Assembly (NCBI GenBank): GCA_038897215.1
Contig: JAWAWX010000001.1
Coordinates: forward strand, 928,001-992,000
DNA length: 64,000 nucleotides
Direction: 5' to 3'
Origin: Acidilobaceae archaeon
GTDB taxonomy: Archaea > Thermoproteota > Thermoprotei_A > Sulfolobales > Acidilobaceae
Below are positions 19,993 to 55,137 of this stretch, piece by piece. Position numbers and translations under genes: made by a program. Positions within the stretch are counted from its first letter, which is position 1. Each line of letters opens with the position of its first letter. Below the pieces are notes generated by a model. That model ran no database searches and was not told the origin of the DNA. It was given only the letters and a program-made list of their open reading frames with translations.

Positions 19993-20004
19993 TCTCAGCT
20001 CACC

Positions 20005-20523
20005 CTACCCGGCTTCAGCTCGCTGAGCCTCAAGCCTCTCCCGGTAGGGGCTGCCGGGAGCGTAGTCTACTAGGTGCTCCTCGTCTACTGAGACCAGGTA
20101 GCCGGGAGAGGTCACTCTCCTCCCCCCGATCGCTATGTGGCCGTGAGCTATCAGCTGCCTCGCCTCGTATATCGTTCGAGCTAGTCTCTTAGCGTAGACG
20201 ATAGTCTGTAGCCTCCTCTGGAGGAAGTGCTCTCCTGTGAGGCTCAGCACGTCGTCTAATGTAGCGTTCTCGCTCAAGACTCCCAGCTTGGCTAGCTTGG
20301 AGGCGAGCTTTCTGAACTCTACTTCTCTAACGTCCTCTGGTAGAGCTAGGAGAGCTCTAGCTCTATGCCTGTACCTCCTAGCCATGGTCTCGGCTAGCCA
20401 GAGCTCTCTCTTGTTCCTCAAGCCGTATCTGCCCATCAGCTCTATCTCTTTCTGTAGTTTCTCCTTGATCCAGGGGTGCTTGGGGCCCATCCACTTCCTC
20501 CTAGACTTCTTGGGGTCACCCAC
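20005..20523 (-). CDS. rps4: 30S ribosomal protein S4
   Basis: [29 protein letters not shown]. Confidence 0.97.
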
Positions 20524-20542
20524 TAGGCTAGCACCTCGCGCT

Positions 20543-21001
20543 CTACTTCTTCTTCTTAGTCACTCCCACAGTCGCTCCTATCCTGCCAGTCGTCCTAGTC
20601 CTCTGCCCTCTAACCTTGTAGCCTAGCTTGTGCCTGACGCCTCTCCAAGTGTTCAGCCTGATCTCTCTCTCTATATCCCTCCTAGCGTACAAGAGGAGGT
20701 CTGAGCCCACGAGGTGCACGTCTCTACCGGTCTCGTAGTCTCTCCTCCTGTTATACATCCAGCTCGGGAGCCCCAAGCTAGTCAAGTCGGCTACAGCGCT
20801 CTCTACTCTCCTTACCTCCTCCTCAGTCAGAAACCCAGCCAGCATGCCGGGATTCAGTCCAAGCATTCTAATAATAGCCATAGCCGTACTATACCCGATA
20901 CCCTTAACCTCAGCTAGAGCCCAAGGTAGCTTCAAATCCCCCCTCACGTCAGTACCAGCTATCCTAACTATATGCGTGAACGACCTAACCTCCCCACTCA
21001 C
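20543..21001 (-). CDS. rps13: 30S ribosomal protein S13
   Basis: [22 protein letters not shown]. Confidence 0.97.
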
Positions 21002-21074
21002 GCCAACGAATCCCCTTGCATAAAACCCAAAACACGAGTAAAGCTTAAATCTATTCTAGAAGCAAACCCCCACA

Positions 21075-21340
21075 TCCCAAACCAGACAAGGGAGCCTTTT
21101 AAAGCGTTTAAAACACTCCCAGCGATGGAGCGGAGTAGAGCAAGCAAGGCGCTGTCATCGCTGATGGAGCGATGGCTGCGATGAAGCGGAATCCCGCGAG
21201 AGACTAGAGCGAGCCATCCCCAGCACCTAAAAACGTAACCAGAGTCCAAGAACGAAAGCAGGCCCCCGCCACGACAGCCAAGAAGCTTAAAACACCAACA
21301 CGACTAAAAATCAAGTGAGCGAAGAAACAGCCACGACACG
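21075..21340 (+). promoter_or_regulatory. CRISPR leader, copy 1
   Basis: Near-identical to 31697-31961; BRE/TATA-like AGAAGCTTAAAA about 50 bp before repeat 1. Confidence 0.8.
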
Positions 21341-21433
21341 GAATCCGACACATGGAGTTGAAAGGAGAATTCGAGCCAGTTCTCCCCGAGCCCGTTACAG
21401 AAAAATTAAGAATCCGGCACATGGAATTGAAAG
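21341..21433 (+). CRISPR. Orphan mini CRISPR array: 2 repeats, one 45-bp spacer
   Basis: GAATCCGACACATGGAGTTGAAAG (21341-21364) and GAATCCGGCACATGGAATTGAAAG (21410-21433); 24-bp crenarchaeal-type repeat ending in GAAAG. Confidence 0.85.
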
Positions 21434-21501
21434 GTTTACTCCCCGGTTATGTGTCGAGGGGAGAGAAGCTGGTAGGGGTTTGGTGCGTTTGTGTGTGGGG
21501 G

Positions 21502-22461
21502 TTAGAGGTTGTTTTTTGCCCATTCTAGGAAGTCTCTTACTGCTTCTTGTAGGCTTCTCCAGTTCTTCTTGAGTATTCTGCTTCTGTACTCGTAGTTTAG
21601 GCTTAGGAGCTCGAGGGTTAGTGCTTCGGGTCTGCCTCTGGGTATTAGGGGTTTTAGTGCTAGAGCAGTGCTTGCTAGGGGCTTGAGGGGTATTGTTATG
21701 CATCTGGCTCCGGTTTGTCTGCACCCCTCTATCACTAGGTCGCTTAGGTCTGGGTGGTGTGATACGGCGTTGAGCCAGAGGCCGTCGTATCTCCCTTCGC
21801 CGGCTTCTGCTAGTATTTCTGCCACGTCCTTGACGTGTACTAGCGGTATTCTTCTACCTAGCTTGGGGGCTATTCTCGCTGATAGCGCTCTCCTGTAAGC
21901 CGCCCACTCTGAGTGGTATGCCCAGGGGCCTAGTAGAAGCCCTGGTCTCACTATGCTCCACTTGCCTCTCAGCTCTCTAGAGCTTCTGAGTAGCCTCTCG
22001 CCCTCAGCCTTGGTGAGCCCGTGGTAGCTGTAGTGCTTGTGGACTTCGGGGTTTAAGTGGTCCTCCTCCTCGTAGACAACGCTCCCGGGCTTGAGGCCCC
22101 TCACTTCGCCCACAGCGCTTACAGCGCTCACGTAGACAACTCTAGCTCCCAGCTCTCCAGCCGCCTTAACGGTCTCTCCTAGGAGTTCTACGTGCGCTTC
22201 TCTAAACTCCTCCAGGCTCCCGGAGATCCTGCCGACCAGGTAGTAGTACACATCGCCCCCCAGGTCCCTCAAGCCCCCGGCTCTCAGAGACTCCGGGAGC
22301 TCTAGTTGCACTCCCATCGCTCTAAGCCTGGCCGCGATACGAGGCCTCCTAGCCTCCGAGCCCCTCCTGCCGACGACGATGACCCGAAAGCCCCTCCTCT
22401 CGAGTTCTTCAGCGAGATTAACCCCCAGGTATCCGAGACCCCCTACTATAACGTGCCTCAA
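21502..22461 (-). CDS. NAD-dependent epimerase/dehydratase (extended SDR)
   Basis: GGLGYLG, TKAEGE, IVRPG, VHVKDVA. Confidence 0.85.
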   Translation of the reverse strand: MRHVIVGGLGYLGVNLAEELERRGFRVIVVGRRGSEARRPRIAARLRAMGVQLELPESLRAGGLRDLGGDVYYYLVGRISGSLEEFREAHVELLGETVKAAGELGARVVYVSAVSAVGEVRGLKPGSVVYEEEDHLNPEVHKHYSYHGLTKAEGERLLRSSRELRGKWSIVRPGLLLGPWAYHSEWAAYRRALSARIAPKLGRRIPLVHVKDVAEILAEAGEGRYDGLWLNAVSHHPDLSDLVIEGCRQTGARCITIPLKPLASTALALKPLIPRGRPEALTLELLSLNYEYRSRILKKNWRSLQEAVRDFLEWAKNNL

Positions 22462-22499
22462 CCAGCCAACCCTCCAGCCTCCGCACCGAGCCCTATTCT

Positions 22500-22570
22500 A
22501 AGCCTCTCCCGGCTTCTCTCTCGTATTCCACGCGCTAGCTCCGGAGGAGAGAGGGGGAGAGGAGAGGCTT
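22500..22570. repeat. Intergenic inverted repeat/hairpin downstream of rpl7ae
   Basis: AAGCCTCTCC (22500-22509) and GGAGAGGCTT (22561-22570), with further inner complementarity. Confidence 0.5.
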
Positions 22571-22622
22571 GAGGAGCTGTGAGCGCGCTGAGCTAGAGAG
22601 TTGTGGCTGGCTCGCGCTGGCT

Positions 22623-23006
22623 TTATACGCCTGCTCTTGCTTTTAGCTCTTTCACTTTCTCCGTGATCTCTCTGAGTAGTGTCTCCGCTTCTCCGGGCTC
22701 TATGATCGCTACGCTGGAGGCTTGTACTTCGATGCCTGCTGCTTCTCCTAGCCTCTTCTTGCTGGGCACGTATGCGTAGGGTATCTTCTTCTCGTCGCAG
22801 AGATAGGGTAGGTGCATGACTATTTCTGGTGGGTCTACGTCTTCAGCTATGACGACTAGCTTAGCGAGGCCTCTCTCGACAGCCTTCGTTGTCTCGTTCA
22901 CGCCCTTCTTTATCTTCCCGGTCTTCCTGGCTCTAGCTACAGCCTCGTATATCTTCTCGGCTAGCTCGGGGGGCACGTTGAATCTGACGTAGATAGGCTT
23001 AGACAT
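22623..23006 (-). CDS. rpl7ae: 50S ribosomal protein L7Ae
   Basis: [24 protein letters not shown]; ATG follows GGAGGAGG. Confidence 0.96.
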
Positions 23007-23091
23007 AGTCATCCTCCTCCCCGCAGGTCGTCCGCATCTCGACCCTCTCTTAGCTTCAACCTTATAAGTCTTAGGGAAGCCGGGTGACGCG

Positions 23092-23634
23092 GTGACCCGC
23101 TTGACCTGCTTGGAGAGACTAGGTCCTGGGAAGAGTGCTCCCGAACTCGTTAACGTCGTGGTCGAGATCCCCATGAATAGCAGCGTTAAGTACGAGTTCG
23201 ACAAGGAAGCCTGCGTAGTCAAAGTAGATAGGTTTCTCTACACCAGCATGGTGTACCCCTTTAACTACGGCTTCATCCCGGGCACTCTCGAGGAAGACGG
23301 AGACCCCGTAGACGTGCTGGTAATCAGCAGAGAGCCCGTCCAAGCCGGGGCAGTCATCGAGGTCAAGCCGATAGGCTTGCTAGAGATGGAGGACGAGGAG
23401 GGTCCAGACGCTAAAGTCATAGCCGTCCCTAAGGCGAAGCTAGACCCCTACTACGCTGACTGGAACGATATAACCGATATCCCGGACGCGTTGAAGGAGA
23501 GGATCAAGCACTTCTTCGAGCACTACAAGGAGCTAGAGCCCGGCAAGTGGGTCAAGGTGAAATCCTGGAGGGGAGCAGCGGAGGCTAGAGAGAAGATTAG
23601 GAGAGCTCTAGAGAGAGCTAGAGGTAGCTCCTAG
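23092..23634 (+). CDS. ppa: Inorganic pyrophosphatase (family I)
   Basis: [27 protein letters not shown]. Confidence 0.96.
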
Positions 23635-23732
23635 CAACTAGTAGCGCGCTCCCTCCCCCGGGGGAGGCTACTCGGAGATAAGAGTGCTGAGAGCTCGCTC
23701 TACCGGGGCTCTGCTCTCTAGAGGGGTATCTC

Positions 23733-24716
23733 TTGCTGAAAGTCAAGGCGTCAGTGACGAGGAGTGGCGCGATACTGCTAGGCGAGTGCTTCAGCGTAGA
23801 CGGTCACAGCTTGAGGCCCGCTAGAGTTGTTACTCACGCTCACAGAGACCACTTAGTGAACATTGAGGCAAGCTTGAGAGAAACTCCCTACATAGTGGCC
23901 ACTCCCTACACCTTCGAGCTACTCGAAGCCCTCGGGTACACTGTGAGCGAGAGTAGAGCAGTCCGGCTAGACTACGGGAGCTCTTTCAGGCTACGGGATG
24001 AGATAGTGACTCTCCTACAAGCTCGGCACATAGTGGGTAGTGCGCAAGTGCTAGTCGAGGGTAGAGACTTCAGAGTAGGGTATACTGGAGACTTCAAGAT
24101 GCCGGGAACTCCGCCCATGACCGACCTAGACGTGCTGGTACTAGACGCGACCTACGGGTCTCCCCATCTGGAGAGGAAGTGGAAGGAGTGGGATGCTGTA
24201 GGGGCTCTCGTAGACATTCTATCCAAGAAGCTTAGAGAAGGCTGTGTGGTCGTAAGAGGCTACAATGGGAAGCTGCAGGAGGTGATGGTTGAGCTGAGGC
24301 TGAGAGGAGTCAGAGACCTCTTTCTCGCCGACGAGGTCACCTACAAGATAGCGAGGATTGCTGAGAGATTCTACAAGACGAGCTTGGAGCCCTTGAGAGT
24401 CTTGAGCGAAGACGTTGTCTGCGGAGACCCGGTAGTCGTATTCAAGCACATAAACTCAGGCTCGCTCAACGAGCACAGCTGCTGCACGCAGGTAATAGTG
24501 ACAGGCTGGGAGCTTAGAGCTCCCGCTGTAGAGATGAAGAAGAGATACGTGAGAGTAGGGCTGAGCGACCACGCTTCATTCAGCGAGATACTAGAGTACG
24601 TGAGCGAAGCTAGGCCGCGCTTAGTGATAGTAGACGGGTATAGAGGTAGAGACGCGGGGGTTACAGCTAAGTACTTGAGTAGAGTGATGGGGATAGACGC
24701 TATAGTGATGCCCTGA
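23733..24716 (+). CDS. Metallo-beta-lactamase fold (beta-CASP-like) nuclease
   Basis: THAHRDH, HIVGS, YTGDF, DATYG, LSDHA. Confidence 0.85.
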   Translation: MLKVKASVTRSGAILLGECFSVDGHSLRPARVVTHAHRDHLVNIEASLRETPYIVATPYTFELLEALGYTVSESRAVRLDYGSSFRLRDEIVTLLQARHIVGSAQVLVEGRDFRVGYTGDFKMPGTPPMTDLDVLVLDATYGSPHLERKWKEWDAVGALVDILSKKLREGCVVVRGYNGKLQEVMVELRLRGVRDLFLADEVTYKIARIAERFYKTSLEPLRVLSEDVVCGDPVVVFKHINSGSLNEHSCCTQVIVTGWELRAPAVEMKKRYVRVGLSDHASFSEILEYVSEARPRLVIVDGYRGRDAGVTAKYLSRVMGIDAIVMP

Positions 24717-24724
24717 GAGCTCAG

Positions 24725-26938
24725 CTATGGGCCTAGAAGGTCTTCTAGAGACGGTGGGCTTGGCGGCAAGCCCTTCCTCTTCCTGATAGCCGAGACCAGC
24801 TGGTCTAGTAGAGAGTCGGGTACTGGAGCCCACCTGCTGAACTCCACGCCCCAGAAAGCCTTGCCTGCTGTAGCTCCTCTCAGCTCGCTAGCTAGGTCGA
24901 AGCTCTCCGCTACCGGGACTTCCGCTATGACTCTAGCAGCGTTGCCGGTAGTGATCACGTTCAGCATCCTCCCCCTCTTGCGCGCCAAGACTGCAGCGAT
25001 ATTGCTTATGTAGTCCATCGGCACTCTTATATCGAGCTTCTGTATAGGCTCTAGGAGCGTTGGCTTAGCTGTGAGAATCCCAGCCCATATAGCGTTCCTC
25101 GTGGCTGGATAGAGCTGACCGGGGCCTCTATGCGCTGGGTCTTCGTGGATGATTGCATCGTGTAGCACCACCTTGAGCCCTCTCACAGGCTCTGCTGCTA
25201 GAGGCCCTTCTCTAACCGCTAGCCTAAACCCGGCTATGATAGTGTCCTTGACTTCTCTGAGGTACTGGACGCCAGCTGTTTTGTCTACGAATACGTTGAA
25301 CCCCTCGTCTATAGCCCAGATCCTCTTAGCCTCATCGTAGTCCCATCCAGCCTTGTCTCTCAGGATAGCTGCTCTATCCTTCGGGTCCATGCTCTCTCTA
25401 ACCTCTCCTCTAGCGATCAACTCTATTGTCTCATCGTTGAGAGGCTCTACGCTTATGTAGAGCTTGTTATGCTTGTTGGGGCTCTTGCCCTCGAACACCT
25501 TGCTCGCAACTCTAGCAGCCTCCCTATACACTACGATTGGCTGAGCAGTCTTGACCTCGACTCCGAACTTCTCTTTGAGTAATGTTAGAGCTACCTCGAG
25601 GTGGAGGGGGCCCATTCCCGACAGCAGGTACTCTCCAGTCTCCTCGTTTATCTTGAGGACTAGGTTGGGGTCTTCGATAGTGAGCTTTCTGAGAGCATCT
25701 ATCACCTTAGGCAAGTCCTGGACTTTCAGAGGCTCTACCGCAATAGTGACCACGGGCTCGCTCACGTATCTAAGAGGCTCGAAGGGAGCGCATGAAGCAG
25801 AGTACCTCATGTCGACTATGGTCTCGCCAGACCTTATGTCCTCGATCCCCATGATCGCTCCGATATTGCCCGCTGTTATCTTGTGCGTGAGCTCCCTGAA
25901 AGGCCCCATGTAGAGGCTGACCTGGAGAATCCTGCCTGTTCTCCCCCCGGATACCAGATACACCTCTCTACCGGGCTCAAGCGTCCCCGAGAAGAGCCTC
26001 CCCGTAGCGACAAGCCCTGCCTTCTCTACTCTAACGTCGTTCACGTAGAAGACCAGAGGCCCGTTGGGGTCGGCTTCTATCATCGCTCTGCCTAGCTCTG
26101 AGTCGAGCTCCCCTCTCCATATCCTGGGGATCCTGTACTTCTGCGCTTCTCTAGGGTTCGGCACGAACTTGACGACAATGTCTAGTAGAGCTTCGTGAAG
26201 CGGGACTTGCTTAGATAGCTGAGCCACGAGCTCCTTATCGTCTCTGCTGTAAGCGTTGATCACGTCGGAGAGAGAAACGCCCTTCTTCTTGACCAGGGGG
26301 ACTGTGAGCGCCCACTTGTCTCTCGCGCTCCCGAAAGCCACCTGGCCCTCGGCTGGGTTCACTTTCCACCTCTTGGCGAACTCTGGCTCTCCGTAGTTGT
26401 CGATTAGGCTATTGAACTCCTTGATTATCTCCACGAATCTCTCCTGTATGCGCTCAGGGGTCATCTTGAGCTCTCTGATCAGCCTATCCACCTTGTTTAT
26501 GAATAGGATTGGTCGAACTCTCTCCTCCAAAGCCTGCCTTACTACTGTCTCCGTCTGAGTCATGACCCCCTCTACGGCATCCACCACTACTATGGCTCCA
26601 TCGAGAACTCTAAGGCTTCTAGTGACTTTGCCCGTGAAGTCTACGTGGCCCGGAGTGTCTATTAGGTTGATCACGTAGGGCTTGCCTTGATACTCGTGGT
26701 AGAGGCTTACGTTTGCAGCCTTAACCGTGATCCCTCTCTGCTTCTCCACAGAGAGGTAGTCTAGGACGAGTGCTTCGCCGGCAAGCCTCTCAGATATAAG
26801 CCCGGCTGCGGCTAGGAGAGAGTCGCTCGTCGTCGTCTTCCCGTGGTCTACGTGAGCTATTATCCCTATATTCCTCACTTGCTCTATGTTACCCATTATC
26901 TTCTCTATCTCAGATACCATCTTGACCCTGATACCCAT
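24725..26938 (-). CDS. fusA: Elongation factor 2
   Basis: [25 protein letters not shown], diphthamide loop [11 protein letters not shown]. Confidence 0.98.
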
Positions 26939-27021
26939 ACCGATACACCTAGCCGAAATCCACAACCCCTATAGCCCTAGAACCTTTAAAGGCTTATGAC
27001 TGACCGCTTCTCGAGCCCCGG

Positions 27022-27564
27022 CTAGTCTTGCTTGAAGAGAGCCGAGAGCCTCAGCTCTGGGCCTACCTGCCTCCCTCCATAGAAGAACCTAACGAGGCAG
27101 AGGTCGCTACCATGAGCTGAGACCGAAGCTATGATAGAGTCTCGCGGAGCCTCGTCTACGAGGAGCTTTGCGTGAAACGCTTTAATCAACTCCTCTGCAA
27201 CCCTATCCGATGCCTCCGACCCATCGCTAGCAACGTAGAGAGCTCTAGGTCTAGACGGGGCTCTAGAGCCTACTTCTCGAGCTAGCTTGACGCCGCGGAG
27301 GCTGAAGACGCTCAAGAGCTCTAGAGAGAGAGGCTCGGCTCGCGGCACGTATACTCTGATGAAGCCCGGGTTCCCTTTCCTTTCTGAGACAACGACGACT
27401 CTAGAAGCGCTGAGAGCTAGCGCTAGCCGAGCTAGGTCCTCCATGGATGCGTGCCCTCTCGTGAATCTAGTGGCGGATGGTAGCACTGAGACCAGGTCTT
27501 TGACTAGGCTTCTCGAGCGACGGCTAGGTCTCCTGCTAGTAGTCACGACTATCTTCCCGGTCAA
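27022..27564 (-). CDS. Brix-domain ribosome biogenesis protein
   Basis: TTSRRPSRRSRS, RG, ERKGNPG. Confidence 0.88.
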   Translation of the reverse strand: MTGKIVVTTSRRPSRRSRSLVKDLVSVLPSATRFTRGHASMEDLARLALALSASRVVVVSERKGNPGFIRVYVPRAEPLSLELLSVFSLRGVKLAREVGSRAPSRPRALYVASDGSEASDRVAEELIKAFHAKLLVDEAPRDSIIASVSAHGSDLCLVRFFYGGRQVGPELRLSALFKQD

Positions 27565-27747
27565 GCTAGCACCCCCTCTAGCCTGCAGCGCTCTCGGATA
27601 AAGTAGCTGTTCTTGGAGCCTAGCCGAGAGGCTGGGCTGACGCGGCTTACCCGCATAAAAGCTTAAAAGGAGCCTGCTGAGAAGTGGGGAGATTAAGGTG
27701 GATCAGTTGGACTCGAAATACTCAAAGCAAGGCTTCGAGCACGCTTC

Positions 27748-28593
27748 CTGGATAGAGGTAGGTGTCTAGAATGCTTTATCCACTCTAGAGCTAGGAAGAT
27801 GAAGGCTAGCACTGCTCTACTCGGTGTTCTCGAGAAGAGCGCGACGAGAACCGAGGTCTTCACTGAATCCTTTAAGCTAATGTATCCGCTAGTCAGAGAG
27901 GAGATAGAGAAGCTGAAGAGAGCTCTTAACGAGAAGTTCCTCGATATCCTCTACGAGGTGAGGGGAGAGAGCTGGAGGAGCCTCTTGACTCTATCAGCTC
28001 TAGCGAATGCTGTAGACTACGAGATGAAGTGGTCTAGCGTGAGCACAGAGCTAGTGTGCGCTAACAGCGGGGAGTGCGGGATTGTAGATAGCGATGCGCT
28101 AGACCTCTTAGAGGACTCCGAGGAGGTAGCCATCCTCCTAGATAACGCTGGAGAAGCAGTAGTCGACCTAGCTCTAGCTTTGAAGCTAGCTGCTTCGGGG
28201 AAGAGGGTTCTAGTGATAGCTAGAGGTGAGCCTTACGAGGTAGACGTGACGGCTGGCGAGGCTAGAGAGCTGGCAGTGAGGGTAGCTGAGCGTATCGGAG
28301 AGAAGGAGGCTCTCAGGAAGATAGTAGTGTTGAGTACTGAGAGCTCCTACCCGGCTTTCGCCGCCACGAGTAACAGCGTGCTCTCAGCTAGCTTGAGTAG
28401 AGTCGACGCTATAGTATCGAAGGGTATAGCTAACTTCGAGGCAGCTGTTGACTACGAGTTCCCGGAGAGCGGTAAAGTCATCGTAGCTCTTAGAGCTAAG
28501 TGCCCGCCAATAGCTGAGCTCCTAGGAGCTCCTCTCGGAGCCCCTGTCATCAGGATACTTAGCAGGATCAGAGCCGAGAGGTGGTCTGTGTGA
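27748..28593 (+). CDS. DUF89/ARMT1-like metal-dependent phosphatase (first ATG 27799; in-frame CxxC lies upstream)
   Basis: LANAVD, LLDNAGEAVVD, SKGIANFE, AKCPPIA. Confidence 0.82.
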   Translation: MDRGRCLECFIHSRARKMKASTALLGVLEKSATRTEVFTESFKLMYPLVREEIEKLKRALNEKFLDILYEVRGESWRSLLTLSALANAVDYEMKWSSVSTELVCANSGECGIVDSDALDLLEDSEEVAILLDNAGEAVVDLALALKLAASGKRVLVIARGEPYEVDVTAGEARELAVRVAERIGEKEALRKIVVLSTESSYPAFAATSNSVLSASLSRVDAIVSKGIANFEAAVDYEFPESGKVIVALRAKCPPIAELLGAPLGAPVIRILSRIRAERWSV

Positions 28594-29528
28594 GGGTCCT
28601 CGTGACCGAGACTGTTAGCGAGAAGCTACTGAAGATTCTTGCAGACGCAGGTCTTCATGTAGACTACAGACCCGGTATTAGCAGAGACGAGTTGATTAGA
28701 GTAGTCGGGGAGTACGACGTGATAGTTGTTAGAGGGAGGACTCGAGTAGACTCCGAGGTGCTCGAGGCTGGAGCGGGGAGGCTGAAGATAGTAGCGAGAG
28801 CTGGGATAGGCTTAGACAACATCGACGTAGAGAAAGCGGAGAAGCTGGGAGTAGTCGTGGTGAACGCTGGAGACGCTTCTATCGAGAGCGTAGCCGAGCT
28901 GACTATAGCGCTGACTCTGATAGCTCTCCGCAGGCTAGACTACGCCATGGGCTTGGTTAAGAGCGGTAAGTGGGAGAGACCGCTTGGGAGAGAGCTCTCA
29001 GGCAAGAGGCTCCTTGTAATCGGCTTCGGGAGGATAGGGAGGAGGGTAGCGGAGCTAGCGAAAAGCTTTGGAGCACTAGTCACAGCCTACGACGTCGTAG
29101 ACGTTAGGAGCGAGGCTGAGAAGAGGGGAGTCGAGGTAGCACCAGACCTCTGTAGTGCTCTCAGAGAAGCCGATATAGTCTCTCTCCACGTGCCTCTCTC
29201 AGAGTCCACGCGCAAGCTTGTGAACAAAGACCTGCTAGAGAGGTGCTTCAAGAGAGGGTCTATACTGGTGAACACCAGCAGAGGAGCCGTAGTAGATGCT
29301 GAGGCAGTGTTGTGGGCTCTAGACCACGGCATTCTCTCAGCCTACGCGGCCGACGTGCTGGAGGAGGAGCCTCCCGTGAGCGAGCTCCAGAAGAGGCTGG
29401 TCACGCACCCTAGAGTGATAGTGACTCCCCACGTGGGAGCTCAGACACTCGAAGCTCAAGAGAGAATAGCTGAGGTTATTGGAGAGGCTATAGTGAGGCT
29501 CGTTAGGAGGCTCGAGAGGAATGCCTAA
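28581..29528 (+). CDS. serA: D-3-phosphoglycerate dehydrogenase-like 2-hydroxyacid dehydrogenase (no ACT domain)
   Basis: RAGIGLDNID, GFGRIG, NTSRG, TPHVGAQT.EAQ. Confidence 0.8.
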   Translation: MVCVRVLVTETVSEKLLKILADAGLHVDYRPGISRDELIRVVGEYDVIVVRGRTRVDSEVLEAGAGRLKIVARAGIGLDNIDVEKAEKLGVVVVNAGDASIESVAELTIALTLIALRRLDYAMGLVKSGKWERPLGRELSGKRLLVIGFGRIGRRVAELAKSFGALVTAYDVVDVRSEAEKRGVEVAPDLCSALREADIVSLHVPLSESTRKLVNKDLLERCFKRGSILVNTSRGAVVDAEAVLWALDHGILSAYAADVLEEEPPVSELQKRLVTHPRVIVTPHVGAQTLEAQERIAEVIGEAIVRLVRRLERNA

Positions 29529-30612
29529 GCTACTAACCCCGGGCCCCGTAGAGGTCCCGAGACCAGTGCTAGAGGCTATGCTGAGAGCTCCTAAGTACCA
29601 TAGAGATAGAGAGTTCAGAGAGTTCTTCTCGAGGCTGAGAGAGAAGCTACTGAAGCTCTCGAGAGGAGCGGCTGAGGTCGCTGTTCTAGCTGGGAGCGGG
29701 ACTACCGCTGTCGATGCTAGCGTATGGTCTCTGATCGAGCGAGGAGAGCGAGTCCTGGCTCTAGTCTGGGGGGAGTTCGGGGAGAGAATGCTGGACTCGG
29801 CTATCAGGCGGGGGGCAATCGTCGACGTGATGAGAGCTCCTGCAGGAAGCGTTGTCGACGAGTCCTCGGTCTTGGAGAAGCTGGAGAGCGGGCTCTACAG
29901 CTCCCTGATCCTCGTGCACAACGAGAGCAGCACGGGCGTTGTCTACTCGCAGCTAGAGACTCTAGCCAGGAGGTCTAGAGACCTCGGAGTCAAGGTGATC
30001 GTAGACTCTGTCTCCGGCTTCGCTGGAGCCCGCATAGAGAACTCTTGGGGGATAACTGCTATAGCGACTAGTAGCCAGAAGGCTCTCGCAGCTCCCCCGG
30101 GCGTCGGCCTCGTCTTCCTCTCCGAAGAGGGGGTCGGGGAGGTCGAGAAGAAGGGGCGCTCAGCACCACCCATGCTCGACTTGAGTATGTACGTAGAGTA
30201 CAGTAGGAGAGTCAGCGAGACCCCCTTCACTCCAGCTCTCCCGATACTCTCCGCTCTAGACGCTGCAGTCGACCTCGTGCTATCAGCAGGTTTGGAGAGA
30301 TACATAGAGGAGCACTATAGGAGAGCTGGCTTCCTCTACGAGAGGCTAGCTGAGGCAGGCTTGGAGCCCCTGCCGGAGAGCCCCTCGATCAGGAGTCCTA
30401 CGATAACAGCCTTCAAGACCCCTATTGACTCGAAGATAGTGGTTGAGAGTGTCCTCAAGCGAGGCTACAAGATAGCTCAGGGGATGAGAGAGTTCAAAGA
30501 CAAGATTGTGAGGATAGGAGTCATGGGGGACGTCACACTCTCAGACCTCGAGGTCGTGGCTTCAACGATAGCCGAAGTCGTGGCAGGCCGTGGGCTCCGC
30601 GGTAGCGAGTGA
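29521..30612 (+). CDS. Class V PLP-dependent aminotransferase
   Basis: LTPGPV, GSGT, HNESSTG, VDSVS, SQKAL, TPFTP, RIGVMG. Confidence 0.9.
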   Translation: MPKLLTPGPVEVPRPVLEAMLRAPKYHRDREFREFFSRLREKLLKLSRGAAEVAVLAGSGTTAVDASVWSLIERGERVLALVWGEFGERMLDSAIRRGAIVDVMRAPAGSVVDESSVLEKLESGLYSSLILVHNESSTGVVYSQLETLARRSRDLGVKVIVDSVSGFAGARIENSWGITAIATSSQKALAAPPGVGLVFLSEEGVGEVEKKGRSAPPMLDLSMYVEYSRRVSETPFTPALPILSALDAAVDLVLSAGLERYIEEHYRRAGFLYERLAEAGLEPLPESPSIRSPTITAFKTPIDSKIVVESVLKRGYKIAQGMREFKDKIVRIGVMGDVTLSDLEVVASTIAEVVAGRGLRGSE

Positions 30613-30621
30613 GTAGCGCTA

Positions 30622-31647
30622 CTACGCGATCACGTTGTCGAGAGGCTCTCTCCCAGACTCGAGCTCCGGAGCTGTGAGAGCTAGGAGGCGCTCGAACTCT
30701 CCCCGCTTCAGACTACACAAATGGTGGGCTACGGCTAGAGGGTGCGGGTAGCCGTCGTTCACAGAGAGCACGGCCAAGTCTCCAGCGATCTTCTCGGCTT
30801 CTTCGAGCGTAATCTGTCCGGGGACTGTTAGCTTGTAGGCTTTACCCCACGGGCTTAGAAGCGCGTAGAAGACCGTGTAGACGCTCGGCAACCCGCTAGC
30901 CGAGCTAGCGGCTTCGCTCTCGCTCACTGCCACGTACGGCCTAGCGGGCCACAGTATGCCTGGAGCTTTCGCGCTCTCTTCTCTGAGAACTCTCCACACT
31001 ATCAGGAAGTCGGGGACCTCCGCGTCTTCTCCCGCTATCTTCACTCTAACCCCGCAGTCTCTCACAAGCACTGGCTTGCTGACGTTCTTCGACACGAACA
31101 CTGCTCTAGTAGACTCTACGATCCTGCCGAGTTGCTCGAGTCTCTCTCTCCACCCTCTACTCAGGCTCTCTCCGAGAGGCTGCCTGGGAGAGACGAGTAT
31201 GGCTTCGACGAAGCTCTCATACGAGCCGTCGAAGAGAGCGTAGCCGGGCTTGAAGCCCCTCCTCATAGCTCTCTCCACAGTCCTGACCTCCATGTTCTTA
31301 GCCGAGTTGTCTAGAACCGCCTCCACGAGCCTCCTAAGCCTCCTCTCGCTCCTGCCAACAAGCTCGATAGCGCCAGCATCGGCATCAGTCTCGCTCCACA
31401 AGACGCCCCTGCTAGCGTGATAGACTACCGCAACCCCCTGAACAGCGTAGACAACCACACCCCTGAAGTTCTTATGGCGCCTACTACTATCACTCGCCAC
31501 GACGAGAAGGTCGCCGCCCCCACCCCCACTCAAAGGAACCCACTCCAGGCCCTCAACCCTCATCTCGCTAATCCTAGCCACAATCTCCTCAACACGACCC
31601 CTAACAAGCCGCATCCTATCGACAAGCTCCTCGAACACAGGCACCAA
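30622..31647 (-). CDS. NurA-domain nuclease
   Basis: VASDSS, LFDGS, VSK and GYPHPLAVAH motifs. Confidence 0.78.
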   Translation of the reverse strand: MVPVFEELVDRMRLVRGRVEEIVARISEMRVEGLEWVPLSGGGGGDLLVVASDSSRRHKNFRGVVVYAVQGVAVVYHASRGVLWSETDADAGAIELVGRSERRLRRLVEAVLDNSAKNMEVRTVERAMRRGFKPGYALFDGSYESFVEAILVSPRQPLGESLSRGWRERLEQLGRIVESTRAVFVSKNVSKPVLVRDCGVRVKIAGEDAEVPDFLIVWRVLREESAKAPGILWPARPYVAVSESEAASSASGLPSVYTVFYALLSPWGKAYKLTVPGQITLEEAEKIAGDLAVLSVNDGYPHPLAVAHHLCSLKRGEFERLLALTAPELESGREPLDNVIA

Positions 31648-31696
31648 GCAAGACCCGCAACAAACAGCACGAAGCCCAAGCTAATAAAGCAAGCAC

Positions 31697-31961
31697 TCCC
31701 AAACCAGACAAGGGAGCCTTTTGAAGCGTTTAAAAAACACCCTCAGCGATGATGCTGAGCAGAGCCAGCAAGGCGCTGTCATCGCTGATGGAGCGATGGC
31801 TGCGATGAAGCAGAATCCCACGAGAGACTAGGGCGAGCCATCCCCCAGCACCAAAACATAACCAGAGTCCAAGAACGAAAGCAGGCCCCCGCCACGACAG
31901 CCAAAAGCTTAAAACACCGACACGACTAAAAATCAAGTGAGCGAAGAAACAGCCCGACACG
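31697..31961 (+). promoter_or_regulatory. CRISPR leader, copy 2
   Basis: Near-identical to 21075-21340. Confidence 0.8.
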
Positions 31962-32577
31962 GAATCCGACACATGGAGTTGAAAGAGACCTGTCAGCGAC
32001 TCAGTGGCGTCAAAGAACAGGGAGAATCCGGCACATGAAGATGAAAGGGATATCTACTAATCACTGCCGGTCTTTAACCTCTGGCCGCACACCATGTATA
32101 GTGGAGGTGTTACTGTGTTTGGCTGAGAAGTGTCCTCCCGAGAAGACCATCCTCGACCAAATGTACGGCATCAGGGTGTGCGCCGAGACCGGGGAGGTCG
32201 TCGAGGAGTCGGTGGTGTCGGATGACGCGGAGTGGAGAGCGTACACGGCTGAGGAGAAGGCCAGAAGGGCTAGGACCGGCGGTGTTGTCTCTATCACCGA
32301 GCCGAATATGGGCATAGGGGCTGTCATCGGGCCGGTGAGGCCGCCCGGGGGCAGGAGAGTTAGGGGGATCTCGAGGTCTCCGGACGCGGCTAGAGTGCGG
32401 AGAGCTTTCAAGAGAATCCGATACGTGGGATAGAAAGCTTGAGGTGCAGGTGCCTCACTGCCTCAGTGGTCTGTGAGAGGAATCCGACACATTGAGTTGA
32501 AAGGCTTATCGGATAATGGGAGATCTCTCGATTCTCGGCGGCCTTAGTGACAGGAATCCTGTGCATGGGATTGGAAG
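31962..32577 (+). CRISPR. Orphan degenerate CRISPR array: 5 repeats, spacers of 38, 366, 42 and 50 bp
   Basis: Repeats at 31962-31985, 32024-32047, 32414-32437, 32480-32503 and 32554-32577, with 0, 3, 5, 1 and 7 mismatches to GAATCCGACACATGGAGTTGAAAG. Confidence 0.88.
32119..32433 (+). CDS. Truncated transcription factor B (Zn-ribbon, B-reader and B-linker only; 104 aa) encoded inside the CRISPR array
   Basis: CPPEK...CAETGEVVEE...EWRAYTAEEKARRARTG; RBS GGAGGTG 32103-32109; TTG start; TAG stop inside repeat 3. Confidence 0.8.
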   Translation: MAEKCPPEKTILDQMYGIRVCAETGEVVEESVVSDDAEWRAYTAEEKARRARTGGVVSITEPNMGIGAVIGPVRPPGGRRVRGISRSPDAARVRRAFKRIRYVG

Positions 32578-32696
32578 AGAAGTGGGGAGTACTGAGGGCT
32601 CCGGTTTTCCAAGCGGGTTTGGTGCGTTGAGTTGAGGGGTTTGGGCGGAAGGTGTATTAGCGTTTTCTGCTTTCTGGGTGTCTTCTTGCGGGGGGC

Positions 32697-33062
32697 TTGG
32701 GGGTGATGTGTGTGGAGGGTTCTGGTGTGGGTTCTGAGGTTTCTATTGAGGAGTTTCGGAGGCTTGACTTGAGGGTTGGGAGGGTTGTTGTTGCTGAGAG
32801 TGTTCCTGGTAGTAGTAAGTTGTTGAGGCTTGTGGTCGATATTGGGGGTGAGCAGAGGCAGGTTTTGGCTGGGATCGCTAGATGGTATAAGCCGGAGGAG
32901 CTTGTGGGGAAGCTTGTCGTTGTTGTCGTTAACTTGAAGCCGAAGGTTATGGCTGGCTTGGTGAGTCAAGGCATGATTCTAGCCGCTGGCTGCGGGCCCG
33001 GGGATAGGCCTGTCTTGGTTACCGTAGAAGAGCCTGTGCCTCCCGGCTCGAGGGTTTGCTGA
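32697..33062 (+). CDS. Stand-alone OB-fold tRNA-binding protein (Trbp111 / MetRS C-terminal domain)
   Basis: DLRVGRV, KLLRL.VDIG, NLKPK, SQGMILA. Confidence 0.92.
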   Translation: MGVMCVEGSGVGSEVSIEEFRRLDLRVGRVVVAESVPGSSKLLRLVVDIGGEQRQVLAGIARWYKPEELVGKLVVVVVNLKPKVMAGLVSQGMILAAGCGPGDRPVLVTVEEPVPPGSRVC

Positions 33063-33669
33063 GCTCATAGTATACTCTTCTCTCCGCTATGTTGACTACC
33101 GCTACTCCGTCTAGGCGCGCTAGCCTAGCCGCCTCCTCTAGGGGTGCTGGTGTAGTCTTGTCTCTGAGCGAGTGGTACAGTCTGATCTTCTCCTGGAGCT
33201 CTCTCAACTCCTGCTCTGAGCGCTCTTGGGGTTGCTTGAGGAGCGAGGACGGCACTGGGATTCTCACGTGGGAGGGCGTTGCTAGGACTACTAGAGCGTC
33301 TAGGCTAGATAGCTTGAACGCCTTCCAGACCACTCTAGACTCGAGGTACTCCTCGAGCCTCGAGATCCACCTAGATGGAACGTAGCCGGACTCTATCTCG
33401 ACCACGACTCGAGTATCTCCTAGCGTAGCGTAGATATCAACGAAGCCCCCGTTGAGAGCAACCTCAGGCTCTACTCTGAAGCCTCGCGAGCAGAGGTCAG
33501 CTGCTACAATCATCTGCGTTATAGCGTGAAGAGAGCTGAGAGCTCCTAGAGCACGCATCTTCAACACTCTCTTCAAAGCGCTAGCGCACGAGGAGCTCTC
33601 AGCAGACCCAGCGACATCCCCGTAGACCTGTAGAGTTGCCAGGAAGCCTCTCGACACCCCTCTATCCAA
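33019..33669 (-). CDS. Hypothetical protein with PD-(D/E)XK-like motifs
   Basis: H...GFRVEPE...VDIYA...VEIESGY. Confidence 0.6.
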   Translation of the reverse strand: MDRGVSRGFLATLQVYGDVAGSAESSSCASALKRVLKMRALGALSSLHAITQMIVAADLCSRGFRVEPEVALNGGFVDIYATLGDTRVVVEIESGYVPSRWISRLEEYLESRVVWKAFKLSSLDALVVLATPSHVRIPVPSSLLKQPQERSEQELRELQEKIRLYHSLRDKTTPAPLEEAARLARLDGVAVVNIAERRVYYELSKPSSREAQALLR

Positions 33670-33833
33670 TAACTTCTGCCCAGCTCCATCTAGGAAGACT
33701 GCTCTCTAAAAGCTCCACTACTGGGAGGTAGCGATGCTAGCTCGAGAGTAGAGCCTTGGAGAGGATTACTCTTTAGCCTTTAGGAGTAGCAGGAGCTAGA
33801 GCTGGTAGCGTGGCGCGCTACCCTTCCCTAAGG

Positions 33834-53354: not shown

Positions 53355-53647
53355 TAGCTACCCCGAAGATGAGAGACGAGGATAGCTCATTAATAAAGTT
53401 TTCCCCTAACCCGGCCGAAGTAGCTAGTGTCATGATGAACACCGAGAGACTCGTCGAGCAGACGGTTGCGAGCATTCTGCGGATAGCGGGAGAATTCAGA
53501 CACTCCCTAGCGACAAACCGCTACCGCCAAGACGAGTTGACTTAGAGCCCGCGAAGGTCGAGCCTTCAATGAAACTCAGTCACACAGTGGTCGATACAGG
53601 TAGCTGATTGCTAGGAGAATAGCGGGTTTCAGACGAGGAGCATATTG

Positions 53648-53726
53648 TGGTGCGGCGGCCGGGATTTGAACCCGGGACCTCCGGCTTGGCAGGCCGGCGT
53701 CCTAGTCCAGGCTAGACGACCGCCGC
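53648..53726 (-). tRNA. tRNA-Gly(GCC), CCA encoded, no intron
   Basis: GCGGCGGTCGTCTAG...CTGCCAA...GTTCAAATCCC...ACCA cloverleaf. Confidence 0.97.
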
Positions 53727-53775
53727 TCCGGCTCCGTCTCTCCTTGAGAGAGTCTTTAAGTGTTTCCCGTGCCGG

Positions 53776-55137
53776 CTAGCTTCGCGCCTGGTAGTGTCTC
53801 CTGAGGGTCTCTAGAGCTTCTGCGAGCACCTCGACTAGTCTCTCTGCCTGGCTCGGGGTGTGCGCCATTGAGGGGAGGAGGTGTGGCATCTTCTCGGTCA
53901 TGTAGAGGACTCCTTTGAGTCTCGCGTATAGGTGGAGTGCTGTGTATAGCTTCGAGTGTCTTCTCGTAGCGTAGGCTTCTCTCACGTTTCTAGGCTTCTT
54001 GGTGGTGAAGTGTATCCCGATCATGCTAGCCACGTTGGTGACCCAGCAGATCCTGTCTGCTTCCTCGCATATAGAGTCTATCTTCCTAGCTGTAGACTCC
54101 CAGAGGCTGTTGAAGCTCTCGTAGAGGTGCTTGTTGGATGCTAGATACCTGACAGTGGCCAGCCCGGCGGCGCAGGTGACGGGGTTGCCCGTGAATGTCC
54201 CCCCGTGGAAGCTCCTCCTCCTAGGGTTCGGTTCTCTGAGATGGTCTAGGAGTCTCATAACCTCCTCTCTACCACCGAAAGCCCCCGCTCCCGGCATCCC
54301 TCCCCCTATTATCTTGCCTAGAGTCACTATGTCTGCTTTGACGCCGAAGTACTCCTGAGCTCCACCCAGAGACAGCCTGAACCCCGTGATCACCTCATCG
54401 AATATCAGCAAGGCTCCGTGCTCTTCAGTTAGCCTCCTCAGTTCCTCGAGATAGCCTTTCTCAGGCTCGAGCGCTCCCCCGGCTCCGGGGACTGGCTCGA
54501 CTATCACTGCTGCTACGTCGAACTCTCTAAGCTTAGCTTCAAGAGCCTCGACGTCGTTGAAGGGGACTGTTAGAGTGTACTTGATGAAATCCTCCAGTAG
54601 CCCGAGAGACTCGGGGCCCTCGAATGGGGGCGTGACTCCAGTATGGAGAGCGTCTAAGCCCCCGTGCCAGCCTCCCTCTATCTTCACCACGTACTTGCGT
54701 CCTGTGAATGCTCTAGCTAAGCGGAGAGCGTACATGTTCGCCTCCGTGCCGCTATTAGTGAATCTCACCATCTCCAGTCCCGGCACTATCTTCGTTAATA
54801 GCTCAGCATACTCGAGAGCATAGGGGTTCTCGAAACCCAGATGAGAGCCATCCCTGAGAGCTTCCGCGACAGCCTCCACTACTAGCTCCGGAGAGTGGCC
54901 TAGTATAAGCGACCCGTGCCCCATCCAGTAGTCATCGTAGACATTGCCGTCCACATCCCAAACCCGAGAACCCTTACCTCTACTGACGAAGAGAGGATAT
55001 GGGGGAAACCATCTTATATGGTATGTGGTGCCGCCAGGAAGCACTCTTAGAGCTCTCTCATACATAACTCTACTACCTCTAGTCCTCTCGCTCACTAACG
55101 ACTCGAGCTGAGCCGTGAGGTCATCTAGCGAAGCCAT
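53776..55137 (-). CDS. Glutamate-1-semialdehyde aminomutase-like class III aminotransferase
   Basis: NSGTEA, FDEVITGFR, LGKIIGGG, GTFTGNP; true substrate uncertain. Confidence 0.85.
   Translation of the reverse strand: MASLDDLTAQLESLVSERTRGSRVMYERALRVLPGGTTYHIRWFPPYPLFVSRGKGSRVWDVDGNVYDDYWMGHGSLILGHSPELVVEAVAEALRDGSHLGFENPYALEYAELLTKIVPGLEMVRFTNSGTEANMYALRLARAFTGRKYVVKIEGGWHGGLDALHTGVTPPFEGPESLGLLEDFIKYTLTVPFNDVEALEAKLREFDVAAVIVEPVPGAGGALEPEKGYLEELRRLTEEHGALLIFDEVITGFRLSLGGAQEYFGVKADIVTLGKIIGGGMPGAGAFGGREEVMRLLDHLREPNPRRRSFHGGTFTGNPVTCAAGLATVRYLASNKHLYESFNSLWESTARKIDSICEEADRICWVTNVASMIGIHFTTKKPRNVREAYATRRHSKLYTALHLYARLKGVLYMTEKMPHLLPSMAHTPSQAERLVEVLAEALETLRRHYQARS

Follow-up and report, generated by a model that had tools for sequence, protein, structure and literature searches.

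Why does the strand composition of ordinary archaeal genes switch abruptly beside a CRISPR array? The question arises from two loci in a 64,000-nt stretch of DNA (the window) belonging to a hot-spring archaeon of the Thermoproteota, whose 1.16-Mb genome carries four CRISPR loci. An earlier note, made from the letters of the window, described a flip from A/C-rich to G/T-rich sequence centred on each array and proposed that the strand leading away from the array is chronically single-stranded and deaminated.

Strand composition flips at CRISPR arrays

The compositional flip beside CRISPR arrays is real. The hand counts in the earlier note are exact, with A+C at 41/60 positions in 21001-21060 and 46/60 in 31621-31680, and G+T at 45/60 in 21481-21540 and 46/60 in 32761-32820. 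Over 300 bp, the keto skew passes from -0.34 to +0.37 at locus 1 and from -0.43 to +0.54 at locus 2 (genome SD, 0.071), values equaled by about 0.1% of genome windows, and all four CRISPR loci hold ranks 1 to 4 among 1,181 gene borders in two-sided synonymous skew. At fourfold sites of the outward strand (the strand running 5' to 3' away from the array), G+T falls through successive 200-bp bins from 0.97 to 0.86, 0.72, 0.63, and 0.54, regaining baseline by 0.8 to 1 kb, a pattern that holds at 8/8 array edges, in both gene orientations and either array orientation. The bias had been said to cover roughly 300 to 400 bp of the flanking genes; it does so, but its reach was understated, the A>G excess persisting for about 1 kb beyond the edge of the array, such that each side of an array affects some 0.5 to 1 kb of ordinary genes. 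Near the arrays the words CTAG, TCGA, and AGCT are depleted, as had been remarked (from 12.3, 7.0, and 12.7 to 6.8, 3.5, and 5.0 per kb), a drop that composition explains in part.

Flip 1 is centred on a plus-strand mini array at 21341-21433, consisting of two 24-bp repeats (21341-21364 and 21410-21433) and one spacer. Its leader (21075-21340, plus strand) is 93% identical to that of locus 2 and is A/C-rich apart from an unskewed core at about 21100-21200. In the left flank (20700-21074; z = 5.0), the plus strand is A/C-rich and the outward minus strand G/T-rich, and the 5' third of rps13 (20543-21001, minus strand) is recoded: G or T fills 41/50 third positions in codons 1 to 50 and 27/50 in codons 51 to 100, against 25/50 in the ortholog of G001, a genome of the same genus. 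The G/T-rich plus strand of the right flank (21434-21900; z = 6.9) is the template strand of an NAD-dependent epimerase gene (21502-22461, minus strand), which is recoded at its 3' end and for which a search of G001 found no homolog. A weaker secondary flip of like polarity spans the epimerase start to the rpl7ae 3' end (22460-22620; z = 4.0 on the rpl7ae side).

At locus 2, the counterpart leader (31697-31961, plus strand) precedes a degenerate plus-strand array (31962-32577) with repeats at 31962, 32024, 32414, 32480, and 32554. Its second spacer is a giant of 366 bp and encloses an open reading frame (32119-32433, plus strand) that has 68% DNA identity to C1:814528-814773 and no Pfam hit, and that reads as a putative TFB-like N-terminal fragment. 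The left flank (31200-31696) enters a NurA-domain gene (30622-31644, minus strand) recoded at its 5' end (z = 6.4), and the right flank, G/T-rich on the plus strand (32578-33050; z = 5.3), recodes the 5' part of a gene for a Trbp-type tRNA-binding protein (32697-33062, plus strand). The skew ignores gene orientation, as the earlier note had it: the right-hand gene lies on the minus strand at locus 1 (epimerase, PF01370) and on the plus strand at locus 2 (tRNA-binding protein, PF01588). Both loci display 24- to 25-bp direct repeats ending in GAAAG, unique 38- to 50-bp spacers, and a common leader, and the genome encodes type I-A-like cas genes, cas1 among them; both arrays are tiny or degenerate and distant from those genes. 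An Rfam scan of the window returned two tRNAs and nothing else.

The genome is apparently metagenome-derived, as an artefact of assembly or sample damage would suppose, but this reading is effectively refuted. Logan contigs assembled from two runs, which belong to two separate studies, match the array flanks with 0 differences, the skew is concentrated at synonymous sites, and it is also present in finished genomes of one contig. The contigs of X2 and X5 carry zero variants and so yield no polymorphism spectrum. Two metatranscriptome runs gave 0 reads over 20000-33800 and are no test of transcription there.

Spectrum of the substitutions

The flip is very probably a mutational footprint and not a signal. 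Its A>G and C>T changes on the outward strand peak at synonymous sites, do not depend on orientation, are polarised in the frozen terminal repeats, and are found at 4/4 arrays. They occur at 10 to 50 times background odds and decay over about 0.5 kb for A>G (about 470 bp) and 0.2 kb for C>T (about 200 bp). Taken by sequence context, the odds are raised 5- to 15-fold for A>G and 2- to 6-fold for C>T in all contexts, with no motif. The same two changes had been said to account for many repeat mutations, and they make up 14/19 deviations in the window (12 A>G and 2 C>T), as scored against an inferred consensus and with some deviations common to several copies and hence not independent. Where the consensus is beyond doubt, in the trailer-end repeats of the 70-repeat array, the figure is 8/9.

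Selection on the outward strand to keep a G/T-rich signal, whether for loading, binding, or termination, would agree with the consistency across all arrays, and U-rich tracts are among archaeal terminators. Such selection is nonetheless improbable given the smooth decay on two unlike length scales, the involvement of every sequence context, the spill into codon positions 1 and 2 (z = 4.1 and 6.4), the damage to terminal repeats, and a conserved leader core that withstands the trend.

A>G matches C>T in strength and extends farther, which fits uncorrected G/T polymerase mispairs in the nascent strand at least as well as deamination of single-stranded DNA. Clustered deamination of the APOBEC type, confined to C in a fixed dinucleotide context, is rejected by the rise of both changes in all contexts, and a diversity-generating retroelement, adenine-only and template-copied, by the concurrent depletion of C and by flanks with no template copy. 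Resection from 5' to 3' by HerA, NurA, and Mre11-type enzymes followed by deamination would give the opposite polarity. The position of nurA beside locus 2 is probably coincidental, because nurA of G001 adjoins rpl15, with no array there. EndoV is found in both skewed and unskewed genomes.

Other centres of skew

The arrays are the strongest centres of the flip but not the only ones. No non-CRISPR border equals them on both sides (best minimum z of 3.5, versus 5.0 to 7.5 at arrays), while some are as steep on one side (TIM, z = 6.0; MiaB-like, z = 6.8). The polarity seen at arrays recurs at tRNA flanks (z of 2 to 4.6, upstream exceeding downstream), at the flanks of SRP-like RNA and rRNA, and at intergenic gaps of at least 40 bp (mean z, +0.35 to +0.72). 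Because of these one-sided borders and tRNA flanks, the process is not exclusive to CRISPR, and from the polarity at RNA genes and gaps it follows that Cas proteins are not needed. The flip at the rRNA operon, which is presumably transcribed more than any other locus, is weaker than that at a two-repeat array. Relic repeats were sought at the non-CRISPR hot borders, and the best matches had 8 to 12 mismatches, as did the null, leaving "ghost arrays" at these sites unproven.

The main competitor to the reading that we prefer, and a less probable one, places the origin of the skew in Cas- or repeat-driven repair tracts, in which the outward strand is nascent and error-prone, or exposed. Cas1 integration could leave a 3'-OH on each strand and start outward gap filling with strand displacement, a leaky type I-A Cas3 (3' to 5') could remove the inward strand, or repeats could recombine and start GRINS-like conversion synthesis (see below). 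This geometry would predict both the polarity and the dominance of the leader side. It gains from the presence of the cas genes, from flips at arrays far above those at rRNA and tRNA loci, and from A>G and C>T in roughly equal measure, as in uncorrected polymerase errors (35:38 in an endoMS deletion of S. islandicus; PMC7736090). Steep one-sided skew also marks both borders of the cas island, whose insertion site is tRNA-Arg, and recombination or integration fits this as well. Against repair tracts, flips of like polarity at tRNAs and plain intergenic gaps require a Cas-independent process, trailer flanks are as skewed at 70-spacer arrays as at 2-repeat arrays while the old spacers stay neutral, Sulfolobaceae with long arrays have no skew, and in two relatives (G014 and G036) the flip is centred on an AT-rich element that precedes the first repeat by about 360 bp, displaced from the integration site.

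Replication origins show a switch in keto (M/K) skew of the same polarity, and origin-like synthesis had been one suggested cause of the flips. In the Orc1/ORB sense this is not supported: ORB boxes occur solely at C1:1085259-1085605, where the flip is only about ±0.1; cdc6 lies at C1:262.7k and 470.4k; and the window has no ORB and no cdc6 adjacent to the arrays, whose skew is at baseline within about 1 kb. It is therefore unlikely that arrays are bona fide origins, or barriers that position Okazaki fragments and thereby leave error-prone DNA on one side. Skew on the scale of replichores is about ±0.04, with no sharp switch at arrays. Moreover, sidedness tracks the leader and not the chromosome strand, the leader (promoter) side being dominant in relatives on either array strand (in G037, for three arrays on the +, -, and + strands within 50 kb), which rules out the fork-direction model of an Okazaki barrier.

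NucS and RNase HI in relatives

The rps13, Trbp, and nurA orthologs of G001 lie apart from arrays, that of Trbp at another location, and are unskewed, as expected if the arrays were responsible. This control is weakened because G001 lacks nucS, the gene for the mismatch-repair nuclease NucS (EndoMS), and has no local skew anywhere; synteny shows a clean deletion, and its side-z SD is 1.07 with none above 4. The G+C content of G001 is 44%. Among 32 relatives, the median array-flank skew is 0.215 in 23 NucS-positive genomes and 0.003 in 9 NucS-less genomes (Mann-Whitney, P = 6e-4, for genomes that are related and so not independent), and nucS was lost on several distinct branches. Among carriers of RNase HI (PF13456), 14/15 are unskewed or weakly skewed, NucS-positive Sulfolobaceae included. 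Both associations are post hoc and drawn from related genomes, the informative RNase HI class (NucS-positive) comprising three clades. The exceptions are Pyrobaculum WP30, skewed despite RNase HI; two NucS-positive Thermococcaceae metagenome-assembled genomes (MAGs), unskewed despite lacking RNase HI; and a skewed MAG (L202/G111) in which NucS was not found.

Leader skew correlates with IVYWREL, a proxy for growth temperature (rho = 0.48, P = 0.013; noisy on short loci). Temperature is insufficient as the sole cause, since tRNA G+C is equal in G000 and G001 (0.72).

A proposed transcription-linked source of transitions

Our best reading, which we hold at slightly below an even chance, is that the flips record strand-specific transitions linked to R-loops and transcription that EndoMS cannot correct. 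From arrays and leaders, abundant untranslated RNA would be made in each direction, through pre-crRNA read-through and divergent or antisense transcripts; Sulfolobus arrays contain internal starts, both sense and antisense (PMC10883916). Lacking type-1 RNase H, a cell may retain array RNAs as persistent RNA:DNA hybrids. Such a hybrid could leave the outward strand unpaired at about 90°C and hence subject to deamination, or it could prime short stretches of outward DNA synthesis, in which G/T mispairs evade the replisome-coupled repair of EndoMS/NucS; either route would enrich the outward strand in G and T. EndoMS clears G/T mispairs, and its loss sharply increases transitions (PMC7736090, PMC6159521). 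The footprint would then be visible only where NucS holds the symmetric genome-wide transition rate low, and after loss of nucS it would be swamped by background errors. In favor of this reading are the polarity common to arrays, RNA genes, and gaps, the dominance of the leader side, the displaced centres in G014 and G036, and the two gene associations; counting against it are the weak flip at the rRNA operon, the unbiased r-protein genes, the exceptions among relatives, and the steep borders of the cas island.

This swamping is a simpler account of the NucS association than one in which NucS itself writes the skew, by cutting bubbles, flaps, or deaminated bases and so causing strand-biased resection and resynthesis. 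That NucS is the writer is improbable, though skew tracks its presence and the archaeal enzyme acts on branched and hypoxanthine-containing DNA (PMC8438529): NucS-positive Sulfolobaceae and Thermococcaceae without skew stand against it.

Relation to known systems

Our search, which covered few subscription journals, found no description of skewed CRISPR flanks. The results point to a local mutation process that is undescribed so far and to a new link with NucS and RNase HI. It bears a close likeness to GRINS, which have strong correlated GC and TA skews, protein recoding, and flips within 1 kb, and for which error-prone synthesis with G/T mispairs has been proposed, the mechanism being unsettled (PMC8256042). 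GRINS lie on the identical G+T/A+C axis, a further point in favor of repair tracts, and they are richest in Streptomyces, which likewise uses NucS (PMC11109965). All 4/4 flanks have skews of the GRINS kind (|GC| of 0.18 to 0.44, |TA| of 0.16 to 0.43, and r of 0.49 to 0.75). GRINS, however, are duplicated regions inside genes (>500 bp, >80% identity), whereas the array flanks are single-copy, with only the 266-bp leader duplicated, mirror-symmetric about a noncoding centre, fixed in polarity, and subject to decay with distance.

Transcription-associated mutagenesis is described at tRNA genes (Thornlow et al. 2018, PMC6130373), and a mutation hotspot is reported at human transcription start sites (PMC12658150). 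Its mutation excess around highly transcribed noncoding genes, greater 5' than 3', is seen here too, weakly, at the tRNAs. At tRNA genes it covers tens of bases and involves C>T on the nontemplate strand, whereas the array flanks extend 0.5 to 1 kb with A>G at least equal, and the strand that is affected changes from one side of the locus to the other. Mutagenesis of this kind would call for outward transcripts on either side; going by annotation, the affected strand serves as template for the epimerase, cas6, and ABC-permease genes in their flanks. Flanks of tRNA, SRP-like RNA, and rRNA genes are skewed below arrays, and r-protein genes, presumably highly expressed, have no keto bias.

A deamination gradient is also described for the mitochondrial heavy strand (PMC9561281). 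The array flanks resemble such gradients and origins in polarity and in one-strand A>G and C>T with unlike distance dependence, but they are local (<1 kb) and near saturation instead of weak and replichore-wide, and the true ORB origin has no such flip.

Implications

We tentatively suggest, as a possibility short of our main reading, that in hyperthermophilic Thermoproteota the leaders and arrays of CRISPR loci repeatedly launch 0.2 to 1 kb of bidirectional DNA synthesis, primed by R-loops or Cas1 integration nicks and outside EndoMS surveillance, and so serve as local mutators of the core genes beside them; a like NucS logic may explain the GRINS of Streptomyces. The footprint would offer a record, readable from sequence, of extra-replisome DNA unwinding or resynthesis in archaea mostly without genetic tools, and one-sided scars could flag places where arrays have been lost or where integration once occurred. 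The NucS and RNase HI associations make extreme G+T/A+C skews, those of GRINS included, genetically testable in Sulfolobus, in which the genes for RNase HI, Cbp1, Cas1, Cas3, and EndoMS are each deletable. If the reading is true, a CRISPR array carries a hidden cost, with silent sites of adjacent essential genes (rps13 and nurA) driven near fixation and amino acids changed in its neighbours.

CRISPR arrays in the window mark a switch in strand composition

The window (C1:928001-992000) belongs to a genome assembled as a single contig (C1) of 1,159,524 bp. The 68% GC content of its 16S gene and its gene content (including SSU and LSU ribosomal protein blocks, two Cdc6 genes and type I-A-like cas genes) identify a hyperthermophilic Thermoproteota archaeon of hot springs. 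The window holds two small arrays sharing one repeat type, with two repeats in array 1 (window 21341-21433) and five degenerate repeats in array 2 (window 31962-32577). Each is preceded by a copy of a 266-bp leader, and the two copies are 93% identical.

The plus strand is A/C-rich to the left of each array and G/T-rich to the right. Keto skews (excess of G+T over A+C, 300 bp) are -0.34 and +0.37 at locus 1 and -0.43 and +0.54 at locus 2, relative to a genome SD of 0.071, and the four hand counts in the earlier note were exact on recounting. The flanks show no differences from independent contigs of two other runs in two studies, so the flip is not an artefact. As had also been claimed, it is indifferent to gene orientation: over the eight edges of the genome's four arrays, the outward strand, which runs 5' to 3' away from the array, is the template in four cases and the coding strand in the others.

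The leader core (window 21100-21200 and 31720-31830) is compositionally neutral despite its skewed surroundings and contains a TTTAAA-GCG-TTTAAA element, which is probably a conserved functional leader motif. A 366-bp spacer (window 32048-32413) holds an intact 104-codon, TFB-like N-terminal fragment with 68% DNA identity to C1:814528-814773. The array cassettes with their passenger genes (window 21075-22461, epimerase; window 31697-33669, Trbp and an unknown ORF) interrupt otherwise syntenic blocks of core genes.

The skew has two spatial scales

At synonymous sites, outward G/(A+G) is 207 of 213 within 400 bp of an array and remains elevated out to roughly 1 kb, with a fitted decay of 466 bp, such that the bias reaches beyond the 300 to 400 bp first ascribed to it; outward T/(C+T) is elevated to only about 600 bp (fitted decay, 197 bp). 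Every sequence context is affected, and codon positions 1 and 2 are also shifted (z of 4.1 and 6.4). Because the gradient is smooth, motif-free and two-scaled and damages both repeats and proteins, it points to mutation, and selection for skewed composition is very improbable.

Two further arrays, which are long and have a different repeat (C1:10410-12790, minus strand; C1:23936-28820, plus strand), display the same flip. Using our own gene calls, fourfold-site G+T on the outward strand falls from 0.97 through 0.86, 0.72 and 0.63 to 0.54 in successive 200-bp bins over all eight array edges, approaching a baseline of about 0.5. In a ranking of 1,181 gene borders by two-sided skew, using a statistic corrected for codon family, the four arrays occupy places 1 to 4 (minimum z, 5.0 to 7.5; next border, 3.5). 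Spacers within the long arrays are neutral in composition, consistent with fast spacer turnover. Frozen terminal repeats have been altered by A>G and C>T on the outward strand, which account for 8 of the 9 deviations at the trailer end of the array with 70 repeats.

Other centers of skew

The arrays are the top-ranked two-sided centers but not the only ones. Flanks of tRNA genes are skewed with the same polarity (z of 3.8 to 4.6 upstream and 2.1 to 3.2 downstream), as are those of the rRNA operon and an SRP-like RNA and, on average, all pooled intergenic gaps of at least 40 bp. A few one-sided borders (TIM, MiaB-like) match array edges in steepness, with no repeat relics at either. Cas1 gap filling, Cas3 3'-to-5' tracts or repeat recombination would yield the same polarity and account for arrays being the strongest centers, but leave the tRNA effect unexplained; we consider this source unlikely. 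Array activity as replication origins is less credible by far, since the ORB (origin box) cluster itself (C1:1085.3-1085.6k) is skewed by only about ±0.1. The earlier note's interpretation is partly supported: the gradient supports mutation, and an origin-like process in the Orc1/ORB sense lacks support.

Several additional features were observed in this genome (G000). Strong non-CRISPR skews without repeat relics lie at C1:1064056-1064600 (start of the MiaB-like gene), 639500-640400, 441900-442300 and 148000-148600, and the enolase/pilin-like gap is among the strong skews. A weak flip of array polarity (window 53500-54000) surrounds tRNA-Gly(GCC) (window 53648-53726). The three ORB-like boxes (C1:1085259-1085605) share one orientation and are distant from both cdc6 genes. 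A 33-kb cas/CRISPR island (C1:2700-36230), with one-sided outward skew at both outer borders, separates TIM from tRNA-Arg(GCG), which are adjacent, without the island, in the same-genus genome G001. A long degenerate inverted repeat (C1:918500-918890; arms roughly 190 bp by eye) sits beside tRNA-Leu(CAG), in the interval from a ligase gene to rps8, and shows a flip of moderate size; because it lies near a weak long-range skew switch, it is a candidate for a second origin or for the relic of a mobile element.

Distribution among relatives

Whole-base skew was measured at the array flanks of about 60 genomes. Many Desulfurococcales-type genomes are strongly skewed, as are Pyrobaculum WP30, one Thermofilaceae MAG and others; skew is absent from the four Sulfolobaceae genomes in which arrays and genes were both measured, from Thermococcaceae and Caldarchaeum, and from the eight bacteria sampled. 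The leader side is the most consistently skewed. In G037, three arrays lie within 50 kb in alternating orientation, and each has its strongest skew on the leader side, so the side is not set by fork direction.

Among 32 genomes of the order, median flank skew is 0.215 in those with the mismatch-repair nuclease NucS (EndoMS; n = 23) versus 0.003 in those without (n = 9; P = 6e-4, with kin not independent and some MAGs incomplete), and nucS losses sit on several separate branches. Within the order, the NucS-positive but unskewed genomes carry type-1 RNase H (RNase HI), and skew is absent or weak in 14 of 15 RNase HI carriers; both associations were identified post hoc. Exceptions to the rule formed by these two genes are Pyrobaculum WP30 (RNase HI-positive yet skewed), two Thermococcaceae (predicted to be skewed yet flat) and one skewed MAG in which nucS was not found. 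The nucS matches of G020, G021, G050, G109, G110 and G114 each contain one internal stop, at which the protein may end early or the gene may be broken; flanks are nevertheless skewed in G021, G050, G109, G110 and G114.

EndoMS corrects G/T mispairs; without it, A:T>G:C and G:C>A:T changes rise to a similar extent (35:38) (PMC7736090), and in Corynebacterium transitions increase over 50-fold (PMC6159521). The simplest account of the NucS link is that NucS would hold the symmetric background low, letting a strand-specific local process reach saturation; that NucS itself writes the skew is highly doubtful.

G001 (82% complete) lacks arrays at both window loci, with rpl7ae next to rps13, rpl15 next to nurA, and Trbp elsewhere. 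Its rps13, nurA, Trbp and cas6 gene ends are unskewed (z of -1.8 to +0.4), as expected of array-less orthologs, but G001 is free of local skew throughout (side-z SD, 1.07; flat tRNA flanks), and a clean deletion within a syntenic region has removed its nucS (G001:C1:206012-206068 versus G000:C1:477620-478453). The control therefore shows that the proteins do not require the bias, and does not demonstrate that an array alone suffices. The GC content of G001 is 10 points below that of G000. Upstream of its cas4 lies an array remnant (G001:C2:5900-6316) that consists of one repeat and a leader-like stretch and is still mildly A/C-rich on its leader side (-0.24 to -0.28).

A possible trigger, and relation to known asymmetries

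Either of two chemistries could produce the outward polarity: an exposed outward strand would be deaminated, or a nascent one would carry G/T mispairs. As the trigger we tentatively favor, at somewhat less than even odds, untranslated RNA and R-loops that would originate in the leader and array. In its favor, the pattern recurs at tRNAs and ordinary gaps, is strongest on the upstream side and is mostly missing from RNase HI carriers; the skew in G014 and G036 is centered on an AT-rich element that precedes the first repeat by about 360 bp; and Sulfolobus arrays are known to contain sense and antisense transcription starts (PMC10883916). Counting against this trigger, rRNA flanks are less skewed than those of a two-repeat array.

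Our literature search found no published description of skewed CRISPR flanks. The nearest phenomenon is GRINS (PMC8256042), whose skew the array flanks share but whose duplication they lack; transcription-associated mutagenesis at tRNAs (PMC6130373) is similarly located but much shorter in range. New here are the top ranking of all four arrays across both orientations, the pair of decay lengths, the background skew at the level of tRNA flanks and the association with NucS and RNase HI. Array-flank skew is a variant of local mutational strand asymmetry whose mechanism is directly testable.
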